A stretch of 64,000 nucleotides of DNA from Nanobdellota archaeon (lineage in GTDB: Archaea > Nanobdellota > Nanobdellia > Woesearchaeales > JBHPFW01), in NCBI GenBank assembly GCA_042571645.1, contig JBHPFW010000003.1:24898-88897 (forward strand), written 5' to 3'. The first letter of the stretch is position 1; each line of letters begins with the position of its first letter. Under the pieces are notes generated by a model. The model saw nothing but the letters and a program-made list of their open reading frames with translations, had not been told where the DNA came from and did no database searches. The translations under genes and the position numbers were made by a program. This document shows, piece by piece, positions 975-62,022 of the stretch.

Positions 975-1409
975 TTATAGGGGGGTGTTGTTACAAATTT
1001 CTTTGATAAGGTCTATTATATGCTTAAATTCAAGTTCATTTGTTTCCAGATATTCTGGTTTGACAAACAATCCGTCATAATTTATCCTGTTTCTAATATC
1101 TTTTAAATTATGTATTGTTAATGCTTCATATTCATATTTTGGATAATTTGTTTTGAAAAAAGATATTAAACATTCATGATTGTCTGATTTTAAGCTGTGC
1201 TTAAGGAGTAATGCAGTAAGAAGTTCTTTAATTGTTTCGTAATATCCTTCAACTATTATAGAAGTTGTTTCATTGTCTTTTTTTATTTGGTTTATTGCTT
1301 TTAATCTTGCATTAGCTACTTTTATTAGGGAAATGATTTTATCTGGATCTTCTTGTGCGGGTTTTAGATGATGTTTTTTGCAAACTTTGTAATTCATTAT
1401 CTCTTTCAA
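975..1409 (-). CDS. HEPN-domain protein, putative toxin partner of the adjacent nucleotidyltransferase
   Basis: 144 aa, all-helical composition. Its N-terminus overlaps the stop of the upstream MNT gene, the classic MNT-HEPN pair arrangement. A clear Rx4-6H motif is not seen (DIRNRINYDG), so the family call is by context and fold-like composition only. Confidence 0.5.
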   Translation of the reverse strand: MKEIMNYKVCKKHHLKPAQEDPDKIISLIKVANARLKAINQIKKDNETTSIIVEGYYETIKELLTALLLKHSLKSDNHECLISFFKTNYPKYEYEALTIHNLKDIRNRINYDGLFVKPEYLETNELEFKHIIDLIKEICNNTPL

Positions 1410-1899
1410 GTCTAATCAGTCCGTGTAGTGTAATTCCGTTGAGGATATTGTTTAGCAGTTCATTGCTTAATTTGTTGAGATTAGTTTCAAAAAATAAATT
1501 GATTTTGTGTTTGAGTTTGAAACTTAAGTCTAAGTTTGTTTTGTTGGATTGAACAAATATGTCGATGTCGCTGTCTTTTGTGTAATCTCCTTTTGCGCAG
1601 CTTCCGAATAATATAATTGCTTTTGGGTTAGTGTGTTTGTAGATATATTCTATTACTCCTGATTTATGTATGCGTTCTAAGATATCTTGTGTCTTGTAAA
1701 ATTTGTATAAGGGGTTTTCTGTATTGGCGGAGTAAGTATCATAAGGTTCGTTTTTGTTCCGGGTTATTAGCTTGTTTTTGATTAGTTGATTTAATGTTCT
1801 TGCAGCTGTTGTTTTTGGGGTGCGGGTAAGTCTTGAGAGTTGTCTTAAGTAAAACTCTTTTCCCGGGTTTTCGTAAAATAATTCTTCTATTTGTCCCAT
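1339..1899 (-). CDS. minimal nucleotidyltransferase (MNT, pol-beta superfamily) with N-terminal winged-helix domain; antitoxin-like
   Basis: Motif ILFGSCAKGDYTKDSDIDIFV (GS-x9-13-D-x-D) typical of MNT. The N-terminus ELFYENPGKEFYLRQLSRLT resembles a wHTH. Confidence 0.8.
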   Translation of the reverse strand: MGQIEELFYENPGKEFYLRQLSRLTRTPKTTAARTLNQLIKNKLITRNKNEPYDTYSANTENPLYKFYKTQDILERIHKSGVIEYIYKHTNPKAIILFGSCAKGDYTKDSDIDIFVQSNKTNLDLSFKLKHKINLFFETNLNKLSNELLNNILNGITLHGLIRLERDNELQSLQKTSSKTRTRRSR

Positions 1900-2296: not shown

Positions 2297-2941
2297 ATGG
2301 ATTGGGAAAAATTAATTCCGGACTTTTTGAAGAGAGCAAAACAAAAACAATTAACTGATTTTGAAATAGAAGTGATAATGCCTTACGAACTAGAAAAGTT
2401 AGTAAAAGATTATAAGGATAGAAAAAATTCTCGGACTGCTGAATATGATCGCGTATTAGACTCAAATTTATTAGTTCCTCTTCATGGAGGATATGATACC
2501 GGAGAAAAAGTTGCAGAAAAAGCCAAAGAACTTGAAAGAATGTTAGTTCTTTATCAAAATTTTGAAAGACTTTTGAAACAGCAAGGTGACTCAGCTGTAG
2601 AAAGATATGGTGCTCACAAAGCAAAAGAATATACAGAAGGAGTTGCTTACTTAACATGGGATGCCCAATTCAAAATTAGTGGTGTTACTTCACTCAGACA
2701 AGTATGGCTACCAGAAAACATAAAAGAAAAGTTGGGTTCTGATTTTGAAGGAACTGTATTAATCCATCATGATACAGAAAATATAATCACTGGAGGCAGA
2801 CCAGAAGCTTATCACAAATTAGAATCCTCAGTTATCGCACTTCCTCAAACTTTAACAACAGAAAGAAGTGAACTTAGGAAACAAATGATTGCAGTAGCAC
2901 AACAAAAAGCAATAAATTACGCCGCAGGATTAGGTGGTTGA
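2297..2941 (+). CDS. hypothetical protein (214 aa) bracketed by nested inverted repeats
   Basis: Complete ORF with no recognisable catalytic motif. Codon composition is slightly GC-richer than the neighbouring genes. Confidence 0.55.
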   Translation: MDWEKLIPDFLKRAKQKQLTDFEIEVIMPYELEKLVKDYKDRKNSRTAEYDRVLDSNLLVPLHGGYDTGEKVAEKAKELERMLVLYQNFERLLKQQGDSAVERYGAHKAKEYTEGVAYLTWDAQFKISGVTSLRQVWLPENIKEKLGSDFEGTVLIHHDTENIITGGRPEAYHKLESSVIALPQTLTTERSELRKQMIAVAQQKAINYAAGLGG

Positions 2942-2972
2942 CTCCTATATTGCATACTATTCAAAATTCTTT

Positions 2973-3034
2973 CTTCGCCAAAGCCCTAAACTAAAATTTA
3001 CTTCTAAATTTTTATTGAAATTAGAAAAAGCCCC
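2973..3034. repeat. right arms of the nested inverted repeats: inner cttcgccaaagcc 2973-2985, outer agaaaaagcccc 3023-3034
   Basis: Exact reverse complements of the arms at 2223-2235 and 2199-2210. A weaker third copy, ccccaaagcg, lies at 3031-3040. Confidence 0.7.
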
Positions 3035-3235
3035 AAAGCGATTGGATCTAACGCAGGTTATGCCAATTCATTTATTTTTGTTTGAATTAAGGCTTGTACT
3101 TCTTGTTTTTGTGTTCCCATAAGGATATCTCTGATTAATTTCCTTCCATACTGAAAATAATTCCTTTCTTCAGGCCTTTGTTTTAGATAAATTTTATAAA
3201 TAATCCCCTCATTAACCTATATTAGGGGTGTTTAG

Positions 3236-4891
3236 ATGACTGAAAAGAGTGAATCAGCAAATAAATTGAGATCTGATGTATTGAAGCATGATATAGCTTG
3301 TCTGCCTCATAGAGCTCTATTAAGGAGTGCAGGTGTTAAAGCTGAGGACTTTGACAAGCCATTCATTGGTGTGGCTAATTCTTATAATGACATTATTCCA
3401 GGACATATTCATTTAGGTGAACTTACAAAAGAAGTCAAGAAAGGCATCAGGGATGCAGGTGGAGTGCCATTTGAATGGGGTGTGCCAGGAGTTTGCGATG
3501 GAATAGCAATGCATGTAGAAATGAGACTAAGCTTGCCATCTAGAGAACATATTGCAGACAACATAGAAATAATGATGTTATCACACTCTTTAGATGGATG
3601 GGTTGGAGTTACAAATTGCGACAAAATCACACCAGGAATGTTAATGGCAGCTGGCAGATTAGATATTCCGGCAATAATGTTAACTGGCGGACCAATGAAA
3701 GCAAATATTGAAGATGGGAAAAAACATCATCCAATTGAAGGCTTTGGAATAGTCGGCCAAGTAGAGGCAGGAAAACTCAAGCCAGAAGAAGCAGAAAAAA
3801 TGTTACCTTGCTTAAGTTGCGGAGCAGGAGCTTGTGTTGGATTGTTTACAGCAAACACAATGGCTGTTGTAACAGAAACATTAGGAATGTCTGTAACAAA
3901 ATGTGCAACAACATTAGCATTAGATCCAGAAAAAAAGAAACAAGCATATGAAACCGGCAAAAAAATTGTTGAATTAGTAAAAAATAATCTAACACCAAGA
4001 AAAATAATGACAAAAGAAGCTTTTGAAAACGCAATAAAAGTAGATATGGCTATGGGCGGTTCAACAAACACCGTCTTACATATTCCAGTAATAGCAAATG
4101 AGTGCGGGATAGATATTAAAACAGATAGATTTGATGAAATCTCAAGGGAAACACCAAATTTGTGCAAAATCATTCCTGCTGGTGAATCAGAAATGGCAGA
4201 TATCAATAATGCAGGAGGGGTTCCAGCAGTCCTAAACAGATTAAAGGATTCTCTAAAAGATTCTCCAACTGTAAATGGTAAATCAATAAAAGATATTGCA
4301 GAACAAGGCAAAGTAACAGATGATGAAGTAATAAGACCATTAGACAAACCATTTTTTGAACAAGGCGGCATTGCAGTACTAAAAGGAAATATTGCAGACA
4401 GCTCAGTAATAAAACAGACTGCAGTAGAAAAAGACATGATGCAGATTGAAGGAACTGCAAAAGTATTCTATACAGAAAATGATTTATTAGAAGCAATCAA
4501 ATCAAAAGGAATTCAGGAAGGGGATGTAATAGTTCTTCCATATCAAGGTTCTATCGGAGCTCCAGGAATGCCGGAAATGTTGACTCCGACTGATGCGATC
4601 AAGGGAGCAGGTTATAAAAAAGTTGCATTATTGACTGATGGAAGATTTTCCGGCGGAACATCAGGACCATGTATAGGCCATATAGAACCTGAAGCATACT
4701 TAGGCGGAGTAATTGCAGCAATAAAAGACGGAGATTATATAGAGATAGATGTGCCAAACAGAAAACTTAATCTGAAAGTAGATGAAGAAATTATTGAGAA
4801 ACGATTAGCAAAAGCAACTCCCCCAGAAAGAACAATGACACCTATGTTAGTTCATTACAAAAACAGGCAGCTTCATAAAACATTATGTTGA
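3236..4891 (+). CDS. ilvD: dihydroxy-acid dehydratase
   Basis: 551 aa with the IlvD/EDD family signatures CDKITPGMLMAAGRLDIPAIMLTGGPM and SCGAGACVGLFTANTMA. Confidence 0.95.
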   Translation: MTEKSESANKLRSDVLKHDIACLPHRALLRSAGVKAEDFDKPFIGVANSYNDIIPGHIHLGELTKEVKKGIRDAGGVPFEWGVPGVCDGIAMHVEMRLSLPSREHIADNIEIMMLSHSLDGWVGVTNCDKITPGMLMAAGRLDIPAIMLTGGPMKANIEDGKKHHPIEGFGIVGQVEAGKLKPEEAEKMLPCLSCGAGACVGLFTANTMAVVTETLGMSVTKCATTLALDPEKKKQAYETGKKIVELVKNNLTPRKIMTKEAFENAIKVDMAMGGSTNTVLHIPVIANECGIDIKTDRFDEISRETPNLCKIIPAGESEMADINNAGGVPAVLNRLKDSLKDSPTVNGKSIKDIAEQGKVTDDEVIRPLDKPFFEQGGIAVLKGNIADSSVIKQTAVEKDMMQIEGTAKVFYTENDLLEAIKSKGIQEGDVIVLPYQGSIGAPGMPEMLTPTDAIKGAGYKKVALLTDGRFSGGTSGPCIGHIEPEAYLGGVIAAIKDGDYIEIDVPNRKLNLKVDEEIIEKRLAKATPPERTMTPMLVHYKNRQLHKTLC

Positions 4892-14383: not shown

Positions 14384-14658
14384 GGACAGGCACACCCACT
14401 GATGGACAGAAAATGAATACAAAGGTTGAACCTTGACTTTTTCTCATTTCCGCAACCCTGCAAGCACCGATCAACTCAGTTAACGCTGCTCCATTCCTGG
14501 TCTGACGTGGTTCCTGAAAAGATTAGTCGAGCAGGACAGAAAATCATTGGCCAAGCCAAGACCTAGTACTCAAAATCTGCCTCTCAGCAAGCTTCACTCC
14601 AACCATAAAGCTCGTTTGTTGTTACAAGAGAGAGCTATCCTCCCGAGCTAGCCTGTCC
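14384..14658 (-). ncRNA. ffs: signal recognition particle RNA (7S/SRP RNA)
   Basis: GC-rich island. The minus-strand segment GUCAGACCAGGAAUGGAGCAGCG matches the conserved SRP domain IV consensus (GGUCAGGUCCGGAAGGAAGCAGC). The 5' GGACAGGC pairs with the 3' GCCUGUCC to form the terminal helix. Length of about 275 nt fits an archaeal SRP RNA. Confidence 0.7.
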
Positions 14659-47057: not shown

Positions 47058-48599
47058 TCATTTATTTCTTGATCTGTCTCGAGAGCTATTACTTTTGTTA
47101 TCGTTTCTGTTGCTTCCGGATCTTGACCTATCGCTTTTATTGTCGCTTCTGTTGCTGCCTCTGCTGCTGTCATTTCTGTTGCTTCTTGCTCCGGATCTAT
47201 CGCTTCTACTATCACTTCTATTACTTCTTCCGCCTGATCTGTTGCTGTTTCCATCTCCGGATCTTTTATTGCTGCTTTGTCCTCTGCTAGAACTTCTATT
47301 GCTATCGCTTCGTCCTCCGCTGCTTCTATTTCCAGATCTGCCAGAACTGTCATTGCCACTACTTCTTCTGTCTCCAGATCGTCTATTTCCAAATCCACCT
47401 CTAGATTGTCCAGAAGATCTACGGCCTCTAGAGAATCCACCTCTAGAATCTCCACGTCTATCATCATCTCTTTGGCCAACATCAAATCTTAATTGAGGAA
47501 AATCTTCTTTCTCAAGCATTTCGATAGGGGTTGGGTTTTTGTCAACTATTTCTCTGAATACAAAATGGTCTTTATCACTCAATAGAGTTATTGCTTTTCC
47601 AGTTTTTCCAGCTCTTGCAGTTCTTCCAACTCTATGAATATATTCTTCTGGGTCATCAGAAAGATCATAATTATATACATGGGATACATGTTCGATGTGC
47701 AAGCCTCTTGCTGCAACTGCAGAAGCCACTAGTATATCAAATTTATTTTTGTTAAAATCATCAATTACAGCAGTTCTTCTGTGTTGGGTTAGCTTTCCAT
47801 GAATGCTTTCAACTTTAAAGCCTTGTTTCCTGAGGTTTTTTGAAACAATATCAACTGTTCTTCTAGTTGCGCAGAATACAATAACTCTTCCAGCTGTTTC
47901 TTTTTTTAGTAAATGAACCAGATAAGAAAATTTCTCATTATGTTTTAAATTGTAATAATATTGCTCCAAAAACTCTTCTTTAACATGACTCTCAGTCCTG
48001 ATTGTTTCTGGGTTGTTCATATATCTTTTCTTGATTATTGAAACATCTTTCTTAGTTGTTGCTCCAAAAAGAAGAACCTGGCGTTCATTAGGAGTGTAGT
48101 TGATAATTCTTGTGATGTCTTCTATGAAACCCATTTCTGCCATCTTGTCTGCTTCATCTAGAATAACGCATTTAATCTTTGAAAGATTTAAAGTTCTTCT
48201 TTCAAGATGATCCAGCAGTCTACCTGGTGTTCCCACGACAATTTGTGATCTTGCAATACTTTCCATCTGAGGATTAATAGCAACTCCTCCATAAACTGTG
48301 GCAACTTTACAATCAACATATTTTGCGAATTTTCTCAATTCTTCTCCAATCTGCACAGCAAGTTCTCTTGTCGGGCAAAGAATAAGAATCTGCACACCTT
48401 TTTTTGGCTCAACCATTTCAATAGCTGGCACACCAAATGCAGCAGTTTTTCCAGAGCCAGTCTTTGATATACCAACAAGATGTTTTCCAGATTTTATCAG
48501 AGCTATTGTTTCTTCTTGTATTGGTGTTGGATCGGTTATGTTAATTTCTTTTAATGCTTTTATTATTTCAGGCCTAACGCCTAGTTTTTCAAATGTCAT
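47058..48599 (-). CDS. DEAD-box ATP-dependent RNA helicase with RG/RS-rich low-complexity C-terminal tail
   Basis: Q-motif, AKTGSGKT, PTRELA, DEAD (VILDEADKM), SAT, HRVGRTARAG. A roughly 140-aa RGG/SR-rich tail follows. Confidence 0.9.
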   Translation of the reverse strand: MTFEKLGVRPEIIKALKEINITDPTPIQEETIALIKSGKHLVGISKTGSGKTAAFGVPAIEMVEPKKGVQILILCPTRELAVQIGEELRKFAKYVDCKVATVYGGVAINPQMESIARSQIVVGTPGRLLDHLERRTLNLSKIKCVILDEADKMAEMGFIEDITRIINYTPNERQVLLFGATTKKDVSIIKKRYMNNPETIRTESHVKEEFLEQYYYNLKHNEKFSYLVHLLKKETAGRVIVFCATRRTVDIVSKNLRKQGFKVESIHGKLTQHRRTAVIDDFNKNKFDILVASAVAARGLHIEHVSHVYNYDLSDDPEEYIHRVGRTARAGKTGKAITLLSDKDHFVFREIVDKNPTPIEMLEKEDFPQLRFDVGQRDDDRRGDSRGGFSRGRRSSGQSRGGFGNRRSGDRRSSGNDSSGRSGNRSSGGRSDSNRSSSRGQSSNKRSGDGNSNRSGGRSNRSDSRSDRSGARSNRNDSSRGSNRSDNKSDRSRSGSNRNDNKSNSSRDRSRNK

Positions 48600-48808
48600 G
48601 TTTATTCCTCTGTATTCTTAATTCTATTAAGTATAATGTCAATTACATGCAAAAATCTGTACTTGATTTTTTGGTGTATAGTGAAACAGAATGAGTATAT
48701 TTTGAGTTACACCATCTGTTTCTGACGTTTACTATCAATATTACTATAGTTTTGTGGATTCATATATAAACCTATGCTTTTTTTTAATCTAGAAATAGTG
48801 AAAAAAGG

Positions 48809-48943
48809 TGCGTCGGCCGGGAATTTCGTGAATATTTGCCTATGCAATATATTATTCGAACCCGGATCAACGGCTTGGAAGGCCGCTATACTTTATGGCA
48901 ATTCCTACAAATTAGGCAATTGTAGCCATTGTACTACCGACGC
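48809..48943 (-). tRNA. tRNA-Gly (anticodon UCC) with two apparent introns, one in the D-loop and one at T-loop 60/61
   Basis: Minus strand: acceptor GCGUCGG/CCGACGC with A73, U8A9, D-stem GUAC/GUAU, anticodon stem GCGGC/GCCGU with loop CUUCCAA, variable UGAU, T-arm CCGGG-UUCGAAU-[32 nt]-CCCGG. About 30 nt are inserted in the D-loop. The mature length would be 73 nt. Confidence 0.6.
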
Positions 48944-48976
48944 ATGAACTCAAGGAAAGACAAGTCATTTATAAAG

Positions 48977-49816
48977 TTAATGCCCTTTTCTCATAAACTT
49001 TTTGTATCTTAATAAGTGCTTTGTATTTGCAGGGCTTATTTCAGAAAAGAATTTGCCGCTTTGATTATATAAATAGAGGTTTTTACCGCTAATAGAAGGT
49101 CTGAAGCCTAAATTCTCAAAACCCTTCCTGACCTCTTCCAAAAAGGCTTTATCCCTGCTTATTATGGATACTACGCTCTCATTTCTTCGTAAATAAATGC
49201 TCCCATCAGTATCAAACAAGCCCCTTAGATAGCTTTGTAGAAATTTCTTATTTAGTTTTATCTTTTTAGGGATATGCAATTTTCTCATCTTCTTGCCTAG
49301 TGGCAACTTATATCTCCCAGTTAAAAACTCAGACAATTCTTTTGAGTTAATAACGCATCTTAGATTATTGTTTGGTTTATATTTCTTAATCTTAACATTA
49401 ACGTTGAATAAGTTTCTGAACAAAAGAGATACTCTTCCTAGAATGTAATCTTTATCTGCCATTAAATGACCGCTAACAACTATTTCATAATTGTATTTAG
49501 AAATGTGACCGTCGCCTGCTAGTATTCCTATCAACTCAGCTAAATGTTCATTAAGAGATGGTTTTTTGATCGTCTCAACTTTATTTCGAATTTCAACATA
49601 ATTGTTATAACTTTTCCTCAGTCTTGAAATATTACAAAGCTTTTCATAATTCTCTTTTGGAATCTTAGATGAACCGTCAAGATAGACAAAAATCATACTT
49701 CTGCTAATTCCCAAGAAAGAGGCAAGTTTTTCCCAGCTAAGACTGGTGCGTTCTTTAACTGATCTCATAAATCTAGTTTGCTCTTTTTTGTTGAAGTTTA
49801 TATATTTCATTTTCAC
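48977..49816 (-). CDS. LAGLIDADG homing endonuclease (double-motif, N-terminal HTH)
   Basis: Two LAGLIDADG-type motifs (LIGILAGDGHISKY and LRGLFDTDGSIYL). N-terminal HTH (SWEKLASFLGISRSMIFVYL). Confidence 0.8.
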   Translation of the reverse strand: MKMKYINFNKKEQTRFMRSVKERTSLSWEKLASFLGISRSMIFVYLDGSSKIPKENYEKLCNISRLRKSYNNYVEIRNKVETIKKPSLNEHLAELIGILAGDGHISKYNYEIVVSGHLMADKDYILGRVSLLFRNLFNVNVKIKKYKPNNNLRCVINSKELSEFLTGRYKLPLGKKMRKLHIPKKIKLNKKFLQSYLRGLFDTDGSIYLRRNESVVSIISRDKAFLEEVRKGFENLGFRPSISGKNLYLYNQSGKFFSEISPANTKHLLRYKKFMRKGH

Positions 49817-49903
49817 TAATTAGCAAATGAAATATATAAAACCTTCTATTAAACCTAACCATTAGACTGTTAAAGAAGTTATTCAATCATAAAGGTTTAT
49901 TAA

Positions 49904-49923
49904 CCATTGTACTACCGACGCAT
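49904..49923. repeat. direct-repeat copy of the tRNA-Gly 5' segment (att-like / target duplication)
   Basis: Exact 20-nt match to 48926-48945. Confidence 0.7.
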
Positions 49924-50034
49924 ATGGTTTAAGGGAGAAATAGGGGATTTATAAAGGTTTCTTAGGCTTTTATTGGTCTTTTTTTCATATCTCCAACCAA
50001 CAACTATTTAAATAATGACTACTTCCCGGTAGTT

Positions 50035-50940
50035 ATGATAATCGATTTAGGTCATAGCAAGGTCATCAAAGAGTACTTTTCAGAGTTTGACATGGCTCAA
50101 CAAATCATTGATCGGCTAGAGCCTCAAGAAATGCCGCCAATTGAGTTTGGATGCCCCAATGATGAAAAGTTTCATAGAACACAATCAACTGAAGACAGTG
50201 ATTTTGATGAGAGAAGGAAATGGAGGAAAGATCAACTAATAAAACTCACTAATTTTTTATGGGAATATTATAATCTTCCAAGAGAAAATATTACAGAATA
50301 TGGTGCTGGTTCTACAGGATATTATTGGGCAAACTTAAGACCAAAAGGCATTGAGGATTGGTTGCAAGTAGATATAAACCCATTAGCAAATAAAGAGAAT
50401 GGGAGAAGAAATCCCGGTGCAAAAATTATCGAGGGGTCTTGTTATGATATTCCGTCTAGGGGTTGTCATCTTATAACAGGATTAGCTCTTCTCGATACAG
50501 TTTCTGACATACCTTTGGCCGTTGATCAAATTGCGGAAGCATTAGCTGAAGGAGGATACCTTTTCCATATTCTGGATAACTATCCAGGTCATCGTGGTGT
50601 TAAGGAGTATTTAATCGCTAGTCGTGGAAGTATTCCGGAGGAGGGGTTTAGAGCGAAATTCAGGGGTAATATATTTGCCCAGCCAACAATTCTAGGATTT
50701 GTAATAGACCAGAAGAGAGAAACTCTTATTAATCTTTTTAGAGATGCAATGGGGGATGCAATCAAGAAGCAACCAAGTCTCGATTTAATAGCAAATGACT
50801 ATTTTACTTATAGTGAGCCTATAGACCGTCCAGAACATCAAGCTTTATTTATGGGGTTGAGATATGAGAACCCTGCTGAAAAGGGAGTAAAAACCACCAC
50901 TGCTCTTATTACTCTAGCTCAAAAAAAAGAAGTTTATTGA
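50035..50940 (+). CDS. class I SAM-dependent methyltransferase-like protein
   Basis: Motif I-like TEYGAGSTGYY, motif II-like IIEGSCYDIP. Codon composition is noticeably GC-richer than the surrounding genes. Confidence 0.5.
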   Translation: MIIDLGHSKVIKEYFSEFDMAQQIIDRLEPQEMPPIEFGCPNDEKFHRTQSTEDSDFDERRKWRKDQLIKLTNFLWEYYNLPRENITEYGAGSTGYYWANLRPKGIEDWLQVDINPLANKENGRRNPGAKIIEGSCYDIPSRGCHLITGLALLDTVSDIPLAVDQIAEALAEGGYLFHILDNYPGHRGVKEYLIASRGSIPEEGFRAKFRGNIFAQPTILGFVIDQKRETLINLFRDAMGDAIKKQPSLDLIANDYFTYSEPIDRPEHQALFMGLRYENPAEKGVKTTTALITLAQKKEVY

Positions 50941-60428: not shown

Positions 60429-61607
60429 TTAAATGGTTTTATAGAACTTCCTTTGAAACTTATCTTTGTGCGATAATATGATTTTATTCTTTTTTAATAA
60501 GCGCTTTAGTACATCCCTTACTGTTGAAGTATTAATTCCTAGTTCTCGGGTGATTTCTGAGTTATAACTACTTTCTTTTAATCTTATAAACTTAAATATC
60601 TTAATCTCGTTTTCTAAGGGATAAGTTCTTAAAGAACTAATTCTGACTATTTTCTTCAGTGAATTAGCCTTTCTTAATCCTTTTTTTGTAAAAGAATAAC
60701 CCTTAGATGATAAAGCTAGATAATTCATATCCTTCAAAATTGTAAGACGATAATGAATAGCACGTTTAGAAAGATAAGGAAATAAGCTATTTACATGTTT
60801 TGTAGAAAAATAAGTTCTATTAATATCCAAAACTTTCACTAATGTTATTTCCCAAGCTTTTGATTTAAAATTTTCTACAATTCTTTTTAATCTTCTCTGA
60901 TGCGATTTTAGAGCAAATCCAATTTGTTCATAGAACTTTGTTACATTTTTAATATCAGCAAAATATAAATAATATTTCCATCCATAATTCTTAATATAAT
61001 ATTTGTAAATCTTAGGTTTGATTCCAAATTTTTTCTTCAATAGAAGTTCTAACTCATCTAAATAAGTTTTATCACAACTATGAAATCTCACTTCAGTTCC
61101 TTTTTTTGGATCGTAAACAGAACCCTCCATTGCAAATGCATATCTTAGATATTCTCTTATTACAGAAATAGGAGAGTACCAAATCCACTGAGGTATTTTT
61201 GCTGATTCATCTGATTTATGGATGTCCAAACAATGATAAATAAAGGATGTAAAAGCCTTTGCTGGATACGCAACTATAGGGGTACCACTATTCTTATGAA
61301 TTGAAAAATTACCATTCAGACCAAATTGTTTTTTGATTATATGAGAGAATTCTTTTACTTTGGATTTATCTTTTTTCTGTGAAAATATACAAGAATTGAG
61401 ATTCTTTTCTATAGAACCATCTAGAATCATTGCAGAAATTTTAGCAAGATCTTCATCTAATATCAAAGGCGACTTAATCAAGAAAGGTTTCGCTTTTGAA
61501 TTTTTTAAATAAACTTTATTATCGTCTATTCTAAAAATATCAGGGAGTTCTTCTTTTGTAATTTGGAAATATTTTTTATCTAAATTGGTATAATTATTTA
61601 ATTTCAT
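60429..61607 (-). CDS. LAGLIDADG-like (DOD) endonuclease-fold protein with C-terminal winged-helix domains
   Basis: Degenerate motif pair (ISAMILDGSIEKN and LRYAFAMEGSVYD). C-terminal MarR-like wHTH (ITRELGINTSTVRDVLKRL). Located immediately downstream of a tRNA gene. Confidence 0.4.
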   Translation of the reverse strand: MKLNNYTNLDKKYFQITKEELPDIFRIDDNKVYLKNSKAKPFLIKSPLILDEDLAKISAMILDGSIEKNLNSCIFSQKKDKSKVKEFSHIIKKQFGLNGNFSIHKNSGTPIVAYPAKAFTSFIYHCLDIHKSDESAKIPQWIWYSPISVIREYLRYAFAMEGSVYDPKKGTEVRFHSCDKTYLDELELLLKKKFGIKPKIYKYYIKNYGWKYYLYFADIKNVTKFYEQIGFALKSHQRRLKRIVENFKSKAWEITLVKVLDINRTYFSTKHVNSLFPYLSKRAIHYRLTILKDMNYLALSSKGYSFTKKGLRKANSLKKIVRISSLRTYPLENEIKIFKFIRLKESSYNSEITRELGINTSTVRDVLKRLLKKNKIILSHKDKFQRKFYKTI

Positions 61608-61851
61608 TTTTTATCACCTCTAAGATTTTCATAAATCTAAATCTTAGAGTTCGCTAAAAAGTCCATATGTAAAACTCACAAAAAATCTTTAAAAAGACCT
61701 TTTGACATTTTGATGGAAAGATTTTTGTAAAGAGTTCTACAGACTTTTTTAAGAAAATGATAGAATAGGTTATTAATATCAGTACCGACCATAAATGTCC
61801 AGTGCTAATAAAAAGAAAAAACCAGAAAGGGATAACCCTTTCCAGTTCGCA

Positions 61852-62022
61852 TAGCGGAGAGTGGACTTTCTCACTGACGTTCGAAGCATTGCCTTAAACG
61901 TCAATATTTGAACCACTGACCTCCGGGTTTCGCCTAGAGCACATATACTCTTATATGAGCCTTCCGCACCCATTAGAAGTTCTAATGAATTCGACGGGCA
62001 CTCCTGGCTGCCCTACTCCGCT
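61852..62022 (-). tRNA. intron-containing tRNA (anticodon unresolved) with an insertion at T-loop 60/61
   Basis: Minus strand: acceptor AGCGGAG/CUCCGCU with A73, U8A9, D-stem GGGC/GCCC, D-loop AGCCAGGAGU, T-arm AGUGG-UUCAAAU-[41 nt]-CCACU. About 55 extra nt lie between the D- and T-arms. Confidence 0.5.

Follow-up and report, generated by a model that had tools for sequence, protein, structure and literature searches.

A known case of a homing endonuclease gene that carries a substitute for the part of the host gene which it displaces comes from fungal mitochondria, where mobile endonuclease open reading frames (mORFs) in atp6 of Allomyces macrogynus and in atp6, atp9, cox2 and nad3 of Glomus bring a replacement gene terminus. 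The native end, once displaced, survives as a relic at a distance of about 1 kb, and it is the hybrid gene that is expressed (PMC3630166). Here, we describe a related arrangement in a transfer RNA (tRNA) gene of an archaeon. The analysis concerns 64,000 nucleotides of a Nanobdellota archaeon (contig JBHPFW010000003.1, positions 24,898 to 88,897 of the forward strand), referred to below as the window. A stretch of 1.1 kb in this window is best understood, with a probability that we put at roughly 60%, as a homing-endonuclease cassette, free-standing yet intron-like, that has entered a tRNA-Gly(UCC) gene at its D-arm. As with the fungal mORFs, a LAGLIDADG gene (LAGLIDADG or GIY-YIG in the fungi) would have entered a host gene and brought with it a foreign copy of that gene's end. 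The fungal elements, however, replace the 3' (C-terminal) end of a protein-coding gene and their open reading frame (ORF) is often fused in frame, whereas in the window it is the 5' part and the promoter of a tRNA gene that appear to be replaced, in an archaeal chromosome and in the company of mini-introns of the bulge-helix-bulge (BHB) type.

A second group of systems with which the locus can be compared is that of collaborative (trans) homing, in which a free-standing endonuclease cooperates with an ORF-less intron at its target, as for F-CphI and psbA in cyanophages; the intron-bearing allele is immune, and gene and intron travel together (PMC3984707). mobE/I-TevIII of phage T4 is reported as a further case (PMC2790892). 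The window has in common with these systems a free-standing endonuclease gene beside a gene with a small ORF-less intron at the expected cut site. Collaborative homing involves self-splicing group I introns in phage protein genes, whereas the window has a protein-spliced archaeal BHB intron in a tRNA gene and, unlike in collaborative homing, the coincidence of cut site and intron site is deduced solely from the end points of the gene relics (stubs) described below.

The LAGLIDADG enzymes of archaeal ribosomal RNA (rRNA) introns (I-DmoI, I-Tsp061I, I-PorI) resemble the window enzyme in their monomeric two-domain fold, archaeal host and association with BHB introns of stable-RNA genes. Their ORFs are located inside a spliced rRNA intron, whereas the ORF in the window lies outside the tRNA introns and its product has an extra N-terminal helix-turn-helix (HTH) domain of about 75 aa. 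Free-standing phage endonucleases include SegB, the gene of which lies in the tRNA gene cluster of T4. In intronless homing by SegF of T4, the gene lies beside its target and is inherited by co-conversion after cutting of an endonuclease-free genome (PMC3984707). The gene in the window likewise lies beside its (here presumed) target, but SegF and SegB are phage GIY-YIG enzymes and occur without partial gene duplication or introns. The integrative elements that target tRNA genes by means of tyrosine or SSV-type integrases also restore the gene by a partial tRNA copy and are flanked by direct repeats; these, however, use an integrase and recombination at attachment (att) sites and replace the 3' part, whereas the unit in the window has no integrase and shows an apparent replacement of 5' part and promoter.

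The interrupted tRNA-Gly(UCC) gene

The archaeal nature of the window is evident from an Archaea_SRP RNA at 14384-14658 (Rfam scan), and all cassette and tRNA features described here are on its minus strand. Neither ARAGORN nor Rfam (gathering thresholds) reported a single tRNA in the whole 64 kb, and the tRNA-Gly(UCC) gene (48943..48809) was therefore reconstructed by hand. Deletion of 48923..48893 (31 nt) and 48854..48823 (32 nt) yields a 72-nt cloverleaf, GCGUCGG UA GUAC AAUGGCUA GUAU A GCGGC CUUCCAA GCCGU UGAU CCGGG UUCGAAU CCCGG CCGACGC A, which ARAGORN identifies as tRNA-Gly(tcc). The unspliced sequence gave nothing in ARAGORN, nor did the sequence from which the D-loop intron alone was removed, and removal of the T-loop intron alone led merely to an aberrant Gly(gcc) call. 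A sequence-only reading of this DNA, made before the present analysis, had proposed a tRNA-Gly(UCC) gene with inserts of about 30 nt in the D-loop and 32 nt in the T-loop, and the reconstruction bears this out.

The gene consists of exon 1 (positions 1-20a; 48924..48943), intron 1 in the D-loop (48893..48923, running from ACAATTGCC to GCCATAA), exon 2 (position 21 to 59, with anticodon TCC; 48855..48892), intron 2 in the T-loop (48823..48854) and exon 3 (position 60 to discriminator A73, with CCA not encoded; 48809..48822), and is followed by a run of six T residues at 48801..48806 that is a likely archaeal terminator. Even before splicing, the minimum free energy fold of the RNA shows the four stems (acceptor, D, anticodon and T) together with two inserted hairpins that have BHB-like cores. 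At both intron junctions this core has the form that archaeal splicing endonucleases recognize, with a 3-nt bulge, a 4-bp helix and a 3-nt bulge, the bulges being on opposite strands: 3' bulge AAA, AUGG:CCAU, 5' bulge CUA and the intron hairpin (CAAUU:AAUUG) in the D-loop, and 3' bulge AUU, UUCG:CGAA, 5' bulge AAU and the intron hairpin in the T-loop. The outer and inner helices are slightly relaxed, with A14 opposite the AAA bulge and a CA spacer in the T-loop intron. In BHB processing, cleavage occurs after the second bulge nucleotide, and applying this rule to both cores places the introns at 20a/21 and 59/60. The T-loop intron of the sequence-only reading was thus retained but moved from 60/61 to 59/60, two positions that a repeated U makes indistinguishable by sequence alone.

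Related introns are found elsewhere. The D-loop intron has homologues in tRNA-Gly(UCC) of L010 and tRNA-Gly(GCC) of L035 (L numbers denote loci in other genomes and metagenome contigs), in which AUGG:CCAU is kept and the inner helix carries a compensatory change (CAACU:AGUUG, against CAAUU:AAUUG in the window). The 59/60 site likewise carries an intron, about 50-90 nt in length, in L001, L004 and L087.

The endonuclease gene

The gene upstream of the tRNA (48977..49816, minus strand) can be read from GTG 49816, giving 279 aa, or from ATG 49810, giving 277 aa, to the stop codon TAA at 48979-48977. The ATG is the more likely start, as it is used in the identical database protein (P0001), a product of a 'Nanoarchaeota archaeon' metagenome-assembled genome (MAG) that matches the window ORF at 100%. 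The product has a Pfam LAGLIDADG_3 (PF14528) match with E=2e-14 and 53.9 bits, against a curated cut-off of 22.5, and a weak N-terminal HTH match. The two motifs that the sequence-only reading had recognized as those of a double-motif LAGLIDADG endonuclease, LAGDGH (D102-G103) and LFDTDGS (D204-G205), have an Asp-Gly pair that is invariant in an alignment of 50 relatives.

In the AlphaFold2 model (pLDDT 95.9), about 75 N-terminal residues form a helical domain that precedes two pseudo-symmetric alpha-beta-beta-alpha-beta-beta-alpha domains. Foldseek gave intein endonuclease domains (VMA) as best structural matches, followed by I-Tsp061I (E=3e-9, TM-score 0.73 on the target) and I-DmoI (E about 1e-7), with the likeness extending to WhiA. 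A sequence profile search against the PDB found the same entries (7qss, 2dch, 1dq3), a positive answer to the HHpred comparison suggested with the sequence-only reading; sequence identity to the archaeal rRNA-intron enzymes is only 16-21%. Judged from sequence and model, the ORF is a genuine two-motif LAGLIDADG endonuclease gene that looks intact.

The direct repeat, the stubs and the promoters

The endonuclease gene is bracketed by a 20-mer, ATGCGTCGGTAGTACAATGG, that occurs at 48926-48945 and 49904-49923 (minus strand) and nowhere else in the window, even when three mismatches are allowed; no copy is expected by chance, and none was found in 100 dinucleotide shuffles. Stub A (49901..49921) comprises tRNA-Gly positions 1-19, identical to those of the functional gene (GCGTCGGTAGTACAATGG), and then continues with TTA (local alignment score 18.5, p=0.003). 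The endonuclease ORF lies between stub A and exon 1, and it is exon 1 alone that continues into the rest of the tRNA. Twenty-five nucleotides upstream of stub A lies P1, a TATA-like box CTTTATAAAT at 49947..49956 that is presumed to be the original tRNA-Gly promoter; the box and the CCCC that follows it resemble the promoter of an endonuclease-less allele in L087 (ATTTATAAATCTCCCC). A second box of the same sequence, P2 (48967..48976), is situated directly after the endonuclease stop codon and 23 nt before tRNA +1, presumably as the promoter of the rebuilt gene.

Between the repeat and the ORF there is a second, older stub that had escaped the sequence-only reading. This stub B (49854..49868; unique in the window) is a D-arm relic, AGTCTAATGGTTAGG, corresponding to tRNA positions 9-23 and followed by TTTAATAG. 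It differs from the D-arm of the window's own tRNA, and its 15-mer recurs exactly upstream of the orthologues in L002, where its distance to the ATG is likewise 43 nt, and in L008, where it matches the D-arm of the functional tRNA as well as the stub. The L002 and L008 proteins are only 48-57% identical to the window endonuclease despite the identical 15-mer. The presumed promoter of the endonuclease gene, a TATA-like sequence GGTTTTATATATTTC at 49829..49843, lies some 20 nt before the start codon, and TTTAAATA or TTTTATA boxes are present at homologous positions in L002, L008, L010 and L011.

The sequence-only reading had taken the repeat as a duplication of the tRNA 5' end that arose on insertion, either of a free-standing homing endonuclease gene or of an att-bounded islet. 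The two copies and the homing endonuclease are there, but the att-bounded islet finds no support, as the LAGLIDADG gene is the only ORF of at least 60 aa between the repeats, where no recombinase was found; one other listed ORF in this interval is a 51-aa frame on the opposite strand, inside the endonuclease gene. A target-site duplication also seems not to be the better description. The identity of stub A and exon 1 is confined to -2..+18, with an abrupt end 2 nt upstream of +1, and the TATA box is all that P1 and P2 have in common (13/43 ungapped matches over the promoter regions). For these reasons the repeat is better read as a resident 5' part and an imported replacement 5' part. The two copies in the window are identical, and it is promoter context that suggests which is the native one. 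A group I intron was also considered and rejected, with no Rfam match between the repeats.

Recurrence next to tRNA genes

About 78 proteins of some 280 aa, with 35-57% identity, are present in assemblies of Nanoarchaeota, Woesearchaeota and Pacearchaeota. Loci were gathered by exact-protein look-up and a motif-based scan, with one genome per species, chosen by protein only. A tRNA-Gly gene was found within about 125 nt of the gene's 3' end in 30 of 33 distinct full-length relatives (29-57% identity, DPANN; window included). In 22 of the 33 it is a tRNA-Gly on the same strand (UCC; once CCC) that starts 0-95 nt after the ORF, and in eight it is convergent (UCC, GCC or CCC) and 25-100 nt away, mostly with Iainarchaeota proteins that have a C-terminal extension. 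The tRNA-adjacent arrangement is the rule for this endonuclease family across DPANN archaea, and since it occurs in single-cell genomes as well as in MAGs (L002, L003, L009), it is no artefact of assembly.

More distant paralogues (25-32% identity) occur 5-25 nt before tRNA-Gln(UUG) in L039-L043 and L053-L055, and others ahead of tRNA-Val(UAC) in L052 and L065. One contig even has two paralogues at two different tRNAs (L028, L040). This, together with the same layout of stub and mini-intron at tRNA-Gln and tRNA-Val, requires repeated insertion events.

Relics of tRNA 5' parts were traced by local alignment of the first 26 nt of the downstream tRNA to the 300 nt upstream of the ORF, with 300 random segments as the null. 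Significant relics (p 0.003-0.02) were obtained in at least 16 loci: eight at tRNA-Gly (window, L002, L008, L010, L011, L012, L019, L033), six at tRNA-Gln (L039, L041-L043, L053, L054) and two at tRNA-Val (L052, L065, the latter with a 20/20 match). They are found at a constant place, 30-65 nt before the start codon, end at tRNA positions around 21-25, and are followed by an A-rich stretch and a TATA-like box (TTTAAATA(G) or TTTTATA) about 22 nt before the ATG.

The junction on the other side of the gene indicates that the tRNA 5' part is physically within the gene cassette. Either the stop codon is directly followed by the tRNA TATA box (TAA-CTTTATAAAT; window, L008, L010, L011, L018), or the reading frame extends into the tRNA and terminates at the TAG made up of U8-A9-G10 (L012, L014, L019-L021, L023, L024, L028, L033). 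Stub and functional copy differ from each other in L002, L014, L019 and L033. In L002, the acceptor strand of the stub, GCGTCAG, is unpairable with the resident 3' strand CCAGCGC, whereas that of the downstream copy, GCGCTGG, pairs with it, and the same is seen in L014. Thus, stub and functional copy have different histories and need not share a recent origin; that in L002 it is the functional copy rather than the stub that fits the resident 3' strand is, however, not what a native stub and an imported functional copy would lead one to expect.

In eight loci the stub and the functional copy hardly differ up to the break, and in each of these a BHB mini-intron interrupts the D-arm of the functional copy, no more than a few nucleotides from the point at which the stub ends: at 20a/21 in the window, 23/24 in L002, L008 and L011, about 22/23 in L039 and L043 (Gln), and 21/22 in L052 and L065 (Val). 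Where the functional copy has no D-arm intron (L014, L019, L028, L033, L041), its D-arm sequence differs from that of the stub. Stub ends (positions 19-25) and D-arm introns (20a/21 to 24/25) fall within the same few nucleotides in at least eight loci. The tRNA identities (Gly, Gln, Val) were confirmed by brute-force deletion in the D-arm combined with ARAGORN, a program that tolerates almost any D-arm and hence cannot fix intron positions.

An endonuclease-free tRNA-Gly(UCC) gene with the same exons as in the window was detected in L087, the single contig obtained from an 18-mer scan of metagenome contigs. The gene lacks a stub, and its D-arm (GGTAGTACAATGGCCAGTATAGCGGCC) is not interrupted by an intron; it possesses the 59/60 intron as in the window and a canonical 37/38 intron. 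Upstream of this gene, at about 1270-1410 (minus strand) of L087, there is a GC-rich, apparently structured segment of about 140 nt that could be an unannotated RNA gene.

Several other members of the family deserve mention. The convergent subfamily, recognizable by a VPRHRDIDY-like C-terminal extension (L016, L017, L025, L026, L030, L031, L032, L036), sometimes has its gene between two tRNA-Gly genes, an orientation that replacement of a 5' part does not explain. A mirror image is seen in L035, where some 210 nt separate a complete tRNA-Gly(GCC) gene with a window-like D-loop intron (about 2150-2290) from the endonuclease gene downstream of it, and the endonuclease gene is closely followed by a 3' tRNA fragment (TTTGAATCTCGGCTGGCGCA; about 3400-3425). 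In L013, an apparently truncated or degenerate member (2501-3193; residues 57-277 align, longest ORF 157 aa) is still positioned ahead of an intron-bearing tRNA-Gly(UCC) gene and may be a decaying copy. Shorter relatives with the LAGLIDADG core only are present in candidate phyla radiation (CPR)/Patescibacteria bacteria, 1-20 nt upstream of a same-strand tRNA-Ser(CGA) gene (contigs L038, L044, L046, L051, L056, L057, L060, L061, L068, L069, L074, L080, L085, L086); in the bacterial relative of L048 the tRNA-Ser(CGA) is 91 nt away. No 5' stub could be established for the bacterial loci, and what seemed to be one in L074 proved to be a complete upstream tRNA-Ser gene and no relic. Viral contigs yielded distant LAGLIDADG relatives only, with no sign of a virus-borne cassette.

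Proposed mechanism and points against it

The anatomy of the locus, the fold and catalytic residues of the enzyme, the repeated occurrence of the layout in other genomes and the stubs, including the positions at which they end, are observations, whereas cleavage specificity, homing, immunity and promoter usage are inferred along the following lines. The cassette would consist, in this order, of the older stub B, the endonuclease promoter, the HTH-LAGLIDADG gene, the second tRNA promoter P2 and the replacement tRNA 5' part. On insertion, the replacement 5' part would join the resident 3' part and so restore a working tRNA gene on the downstream side of the endonuclease gene, while the displaced resident promoter and 5' part (P1 and stub A) would persist upstream as a dead end. 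With promoter and 5' part supplied by the cassette, the tRNA gene could remain functional without 1 kb having to be spliced out.

The enzyme would recognize the region from the D-arm to the anticodon stem and cut endonuclease-free tRNA-Gly genes near positions 19-25. The break could then be repaired from the cassette-bearing allele, homology on the right being provided by the tRNA 3' part and on the left by the stub, so that the unit could home regardless of the flanking genes. If the stub is too diverged, the left side might instead be joined by end joining in the upstream flank of the donor, which would leave the promoter and 5' part of the recipient as a new stub outside the old one and could in this way produce the nested pattern of stubs A and B in the window. 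The recognition site would be restored in the rebuilt gene, which would have to escape cleavage through a mini-intron at the cut site or through substitutions. In the window, the 31-nt BHB mini-intron at 20a/21 may split the recognition site and so protect the rebuilt gene, and in relatives without a D-arm intron substitutions in the D-arm would take over this role. Both mini-introns would be removed from the pre-tRNA by the host splicing endonuclease, which would need a broad specificity to act at such non-canonical positions. There are precedents for each half of this model, namely the fungal mORFs with their replacement terminus (PMC3630166) and collaborative homing (PMC3984707).

A number of observations weigh against this interpretation. 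Half of the same-strand tRNA-Gly loci have no D-arm intron, and no stub is recognizable in several loci (L004, L018, L020, L023, L024, L029). Two-sided synteny in some Pacearchaeota (L019, L033) fits long vertical inheritance equally well. The stub overlaps the promoter region of the endonuclease gene, and its conservation could reflect promoter function instead of use as a homology arm. The association of intron and endonuclease is not phylogeny-corrected, and tRNAs with odd introns elsewhere are invisible to ARAGORN, which leaves the frequency of D-arm introns without a background value. Neighbour-gene and helicase-synteny searches yielded no orthologous empty site, and the endonuclease-free L087 is non-syntenic. 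This outcome can be attributed to the neighbouring genes: the 301-aa ORF with a methyltransferase domain that diverges from stub A (50035-50940, plus strand) has no homologue but itself among 5.8 billion proteins, and the closest homologues of the DEAD-box helicase on the other side are at most 64% identical, with loci (L146-L148) that are not syntenic.

Alternative explanations

The explanation that competes best with a homing cassette, although we consider it rather improbable, is domestication: a LAGLIDADG gene would have entered once, in ancient times, beside tRNA-Gly and now be inherited vertically as a host factor, with the stubs as its decaying remains. Such a protein could be, e.g. a WhiA-like DNA-binding regulator or a nuclease that acts on the tRNA-Gly locus. 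Maintenance of the linkage over phylum-level diversity with almost all ORFs intact, conservation of the N-terminal HTH domain and a structural similarity that reaches WhiA would agree with this, as would the flanking synteny common to L019 and L033 and to L001, L002, L012 and L014. Domestication is difficult to reconcile, however, with the invariance of the catalytic Asp in both motifs, with a fresh and perfect stub A outside the older stub B, and with the stubs of L002 and L014 that mismatch the resident acceptor stem. The paralogues with an identical stub and mini-intron layout at tRNA-Gln and tRNA-Val, including the pair L028 and L040 on one contig, and the existence of an endonuclease-free allele (L087) also argue for a gene that moves.

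A very unlikely alternative is that the whole insert is a giant BHB intron with an alternative 5' exon, comparable to archaeal rRNA introns. Transcripts starting at P1 would then be spliced from stub A to exon 2, releasing an ORF-carrying (circular) RNA of about 1 kb, and the downstream 5' exon would serve as a second, alternative donor. Stub A does keep the AUGG that pairs with CCAU of the intron, with UUA where the functional copy has the CUA bulge, the P1 TATA box is well placed, and no T-run precedes the ORF; moreover, relaxed BHB motifs are reported to be substrates of some archaeal splicing endonucleases (PMC5829648). Yet, the sequence after stub A is unlike the 5' end of the mini-intron and not complementary to the 3' part of the intron, the predicted duplex of -4.3 kcal/mol being weaker than the shuffle mean of -5.6 kcal/mol. 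In addition, the acceptor strand of the L002 stub has two mismatches to the 3' strand, and several family members are stubless.

An integrase-type islet with the repeat as a recombinase att duplication, to which the overlap of a direct repeat with a tRNA gene might point, or a split-tRNA half of the Nanoarchaeum/Caldivirga type with stub A joined in trans, as split tRNA-Gly genes exist in other archaea, is hardly credible, since only a LAGLIDADG gene and no recombinase lies between the repeats, the portion of the tRNA covered by the repeat is the 5' and not the 3' one, the tRNA gene already has a complete 5' exon in cis, and the duplex test with the stub A trailer revealed neither a trailer nor a leader of complementary sequence. 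The cassette involves no integrase or att system.

Other features of the window

The window contains a second LAGLIDADG_3 ORF at 60429-61607 (minus strand; 392 aa, PF14528 E=7e-11) with a C-terminal winged HTH domain. It lies about 240 nt downstream of a tRNA-like gene that was also unreported (approximately 61850-62022, minus strand). The acceptor strands of this tRNA-like gene are AGCGGAG/CTCCGCT; it has a ACATTTATAAAT box to itself, and some 43 nt interrupt its T-loop, again at 59/60. At least two tRNA genes in these 64 kb are thus hidden by non-canonical introns, against none reported by ARAGORN or Rfam, and the tRNA complements of such genomes are probably under-annotated. Directly downstream of the tRNA-Gly gene, the DEAD-box helicase (47058-48599, minus strand) has a C-terminal tail of about 130 aa composed almost solely of R, S, G, N and D, and a sequence in the 5' leader of its gene, TTCTGTTTCAC, recurs in L147 and L148, where the homologous genes have long conserved leaders that include it.

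Significance for DPANN archaea

The arrangement is a new form of known homing-endonuclease behaviour that is widespread in DPANN archaea. It was not described in the literature searched, the coverage of which is incomplete, so that a prior description is possible; the closest recent work, on group I introns in tRNAs of Patescibacteria, reports no such arrangement. It would be the first case found of an endonuclease cassette that restores a stable-RNA gene via an imported promoter and 5' part instead of by splicing. The intron-containing structure of these genes explains why standard tRNA finders miss them in DPANN genomes. Furthermore, the family would supply many natural LAGLIDADG enzymes with targets that are predictable from the adjacent tRNA.

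The locus also bears on the origin of non-canonical tRNA introns and tRNA gene fragments. The occurrence of introns at odd positions and the splitting of archaeal tRNA genes form an old open question, for which one proposal is that interruption shields a tRNA gene from mobile elements that target tRNA genes. The window and its relatives juxtapose an apparently active endonuclease family, its presumed cut site as marked by the stub ends, and a mini-intron at that very place. It is possible, but at present no more than a tentative suggestion, that immunity against a diversified, tRNA-gene-targeting LAGLIDADG family, the members of which are presumed to be specific for Gly, Gln, Val and other tRNAs, is what gives rise to non-canonical BHB introns in the D-arm of tRNA genes in DPANN archaea or maintains them; the cassettes may then be regarded as 'pseudo-introns' that bring a promoter and 5' part, and the stubs as raw material for split tRNA genes. 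If true, this would provide a concrete molecular driver for the long-debated idea that fragmentation of tRNA genes serves as protection against mobile elements.

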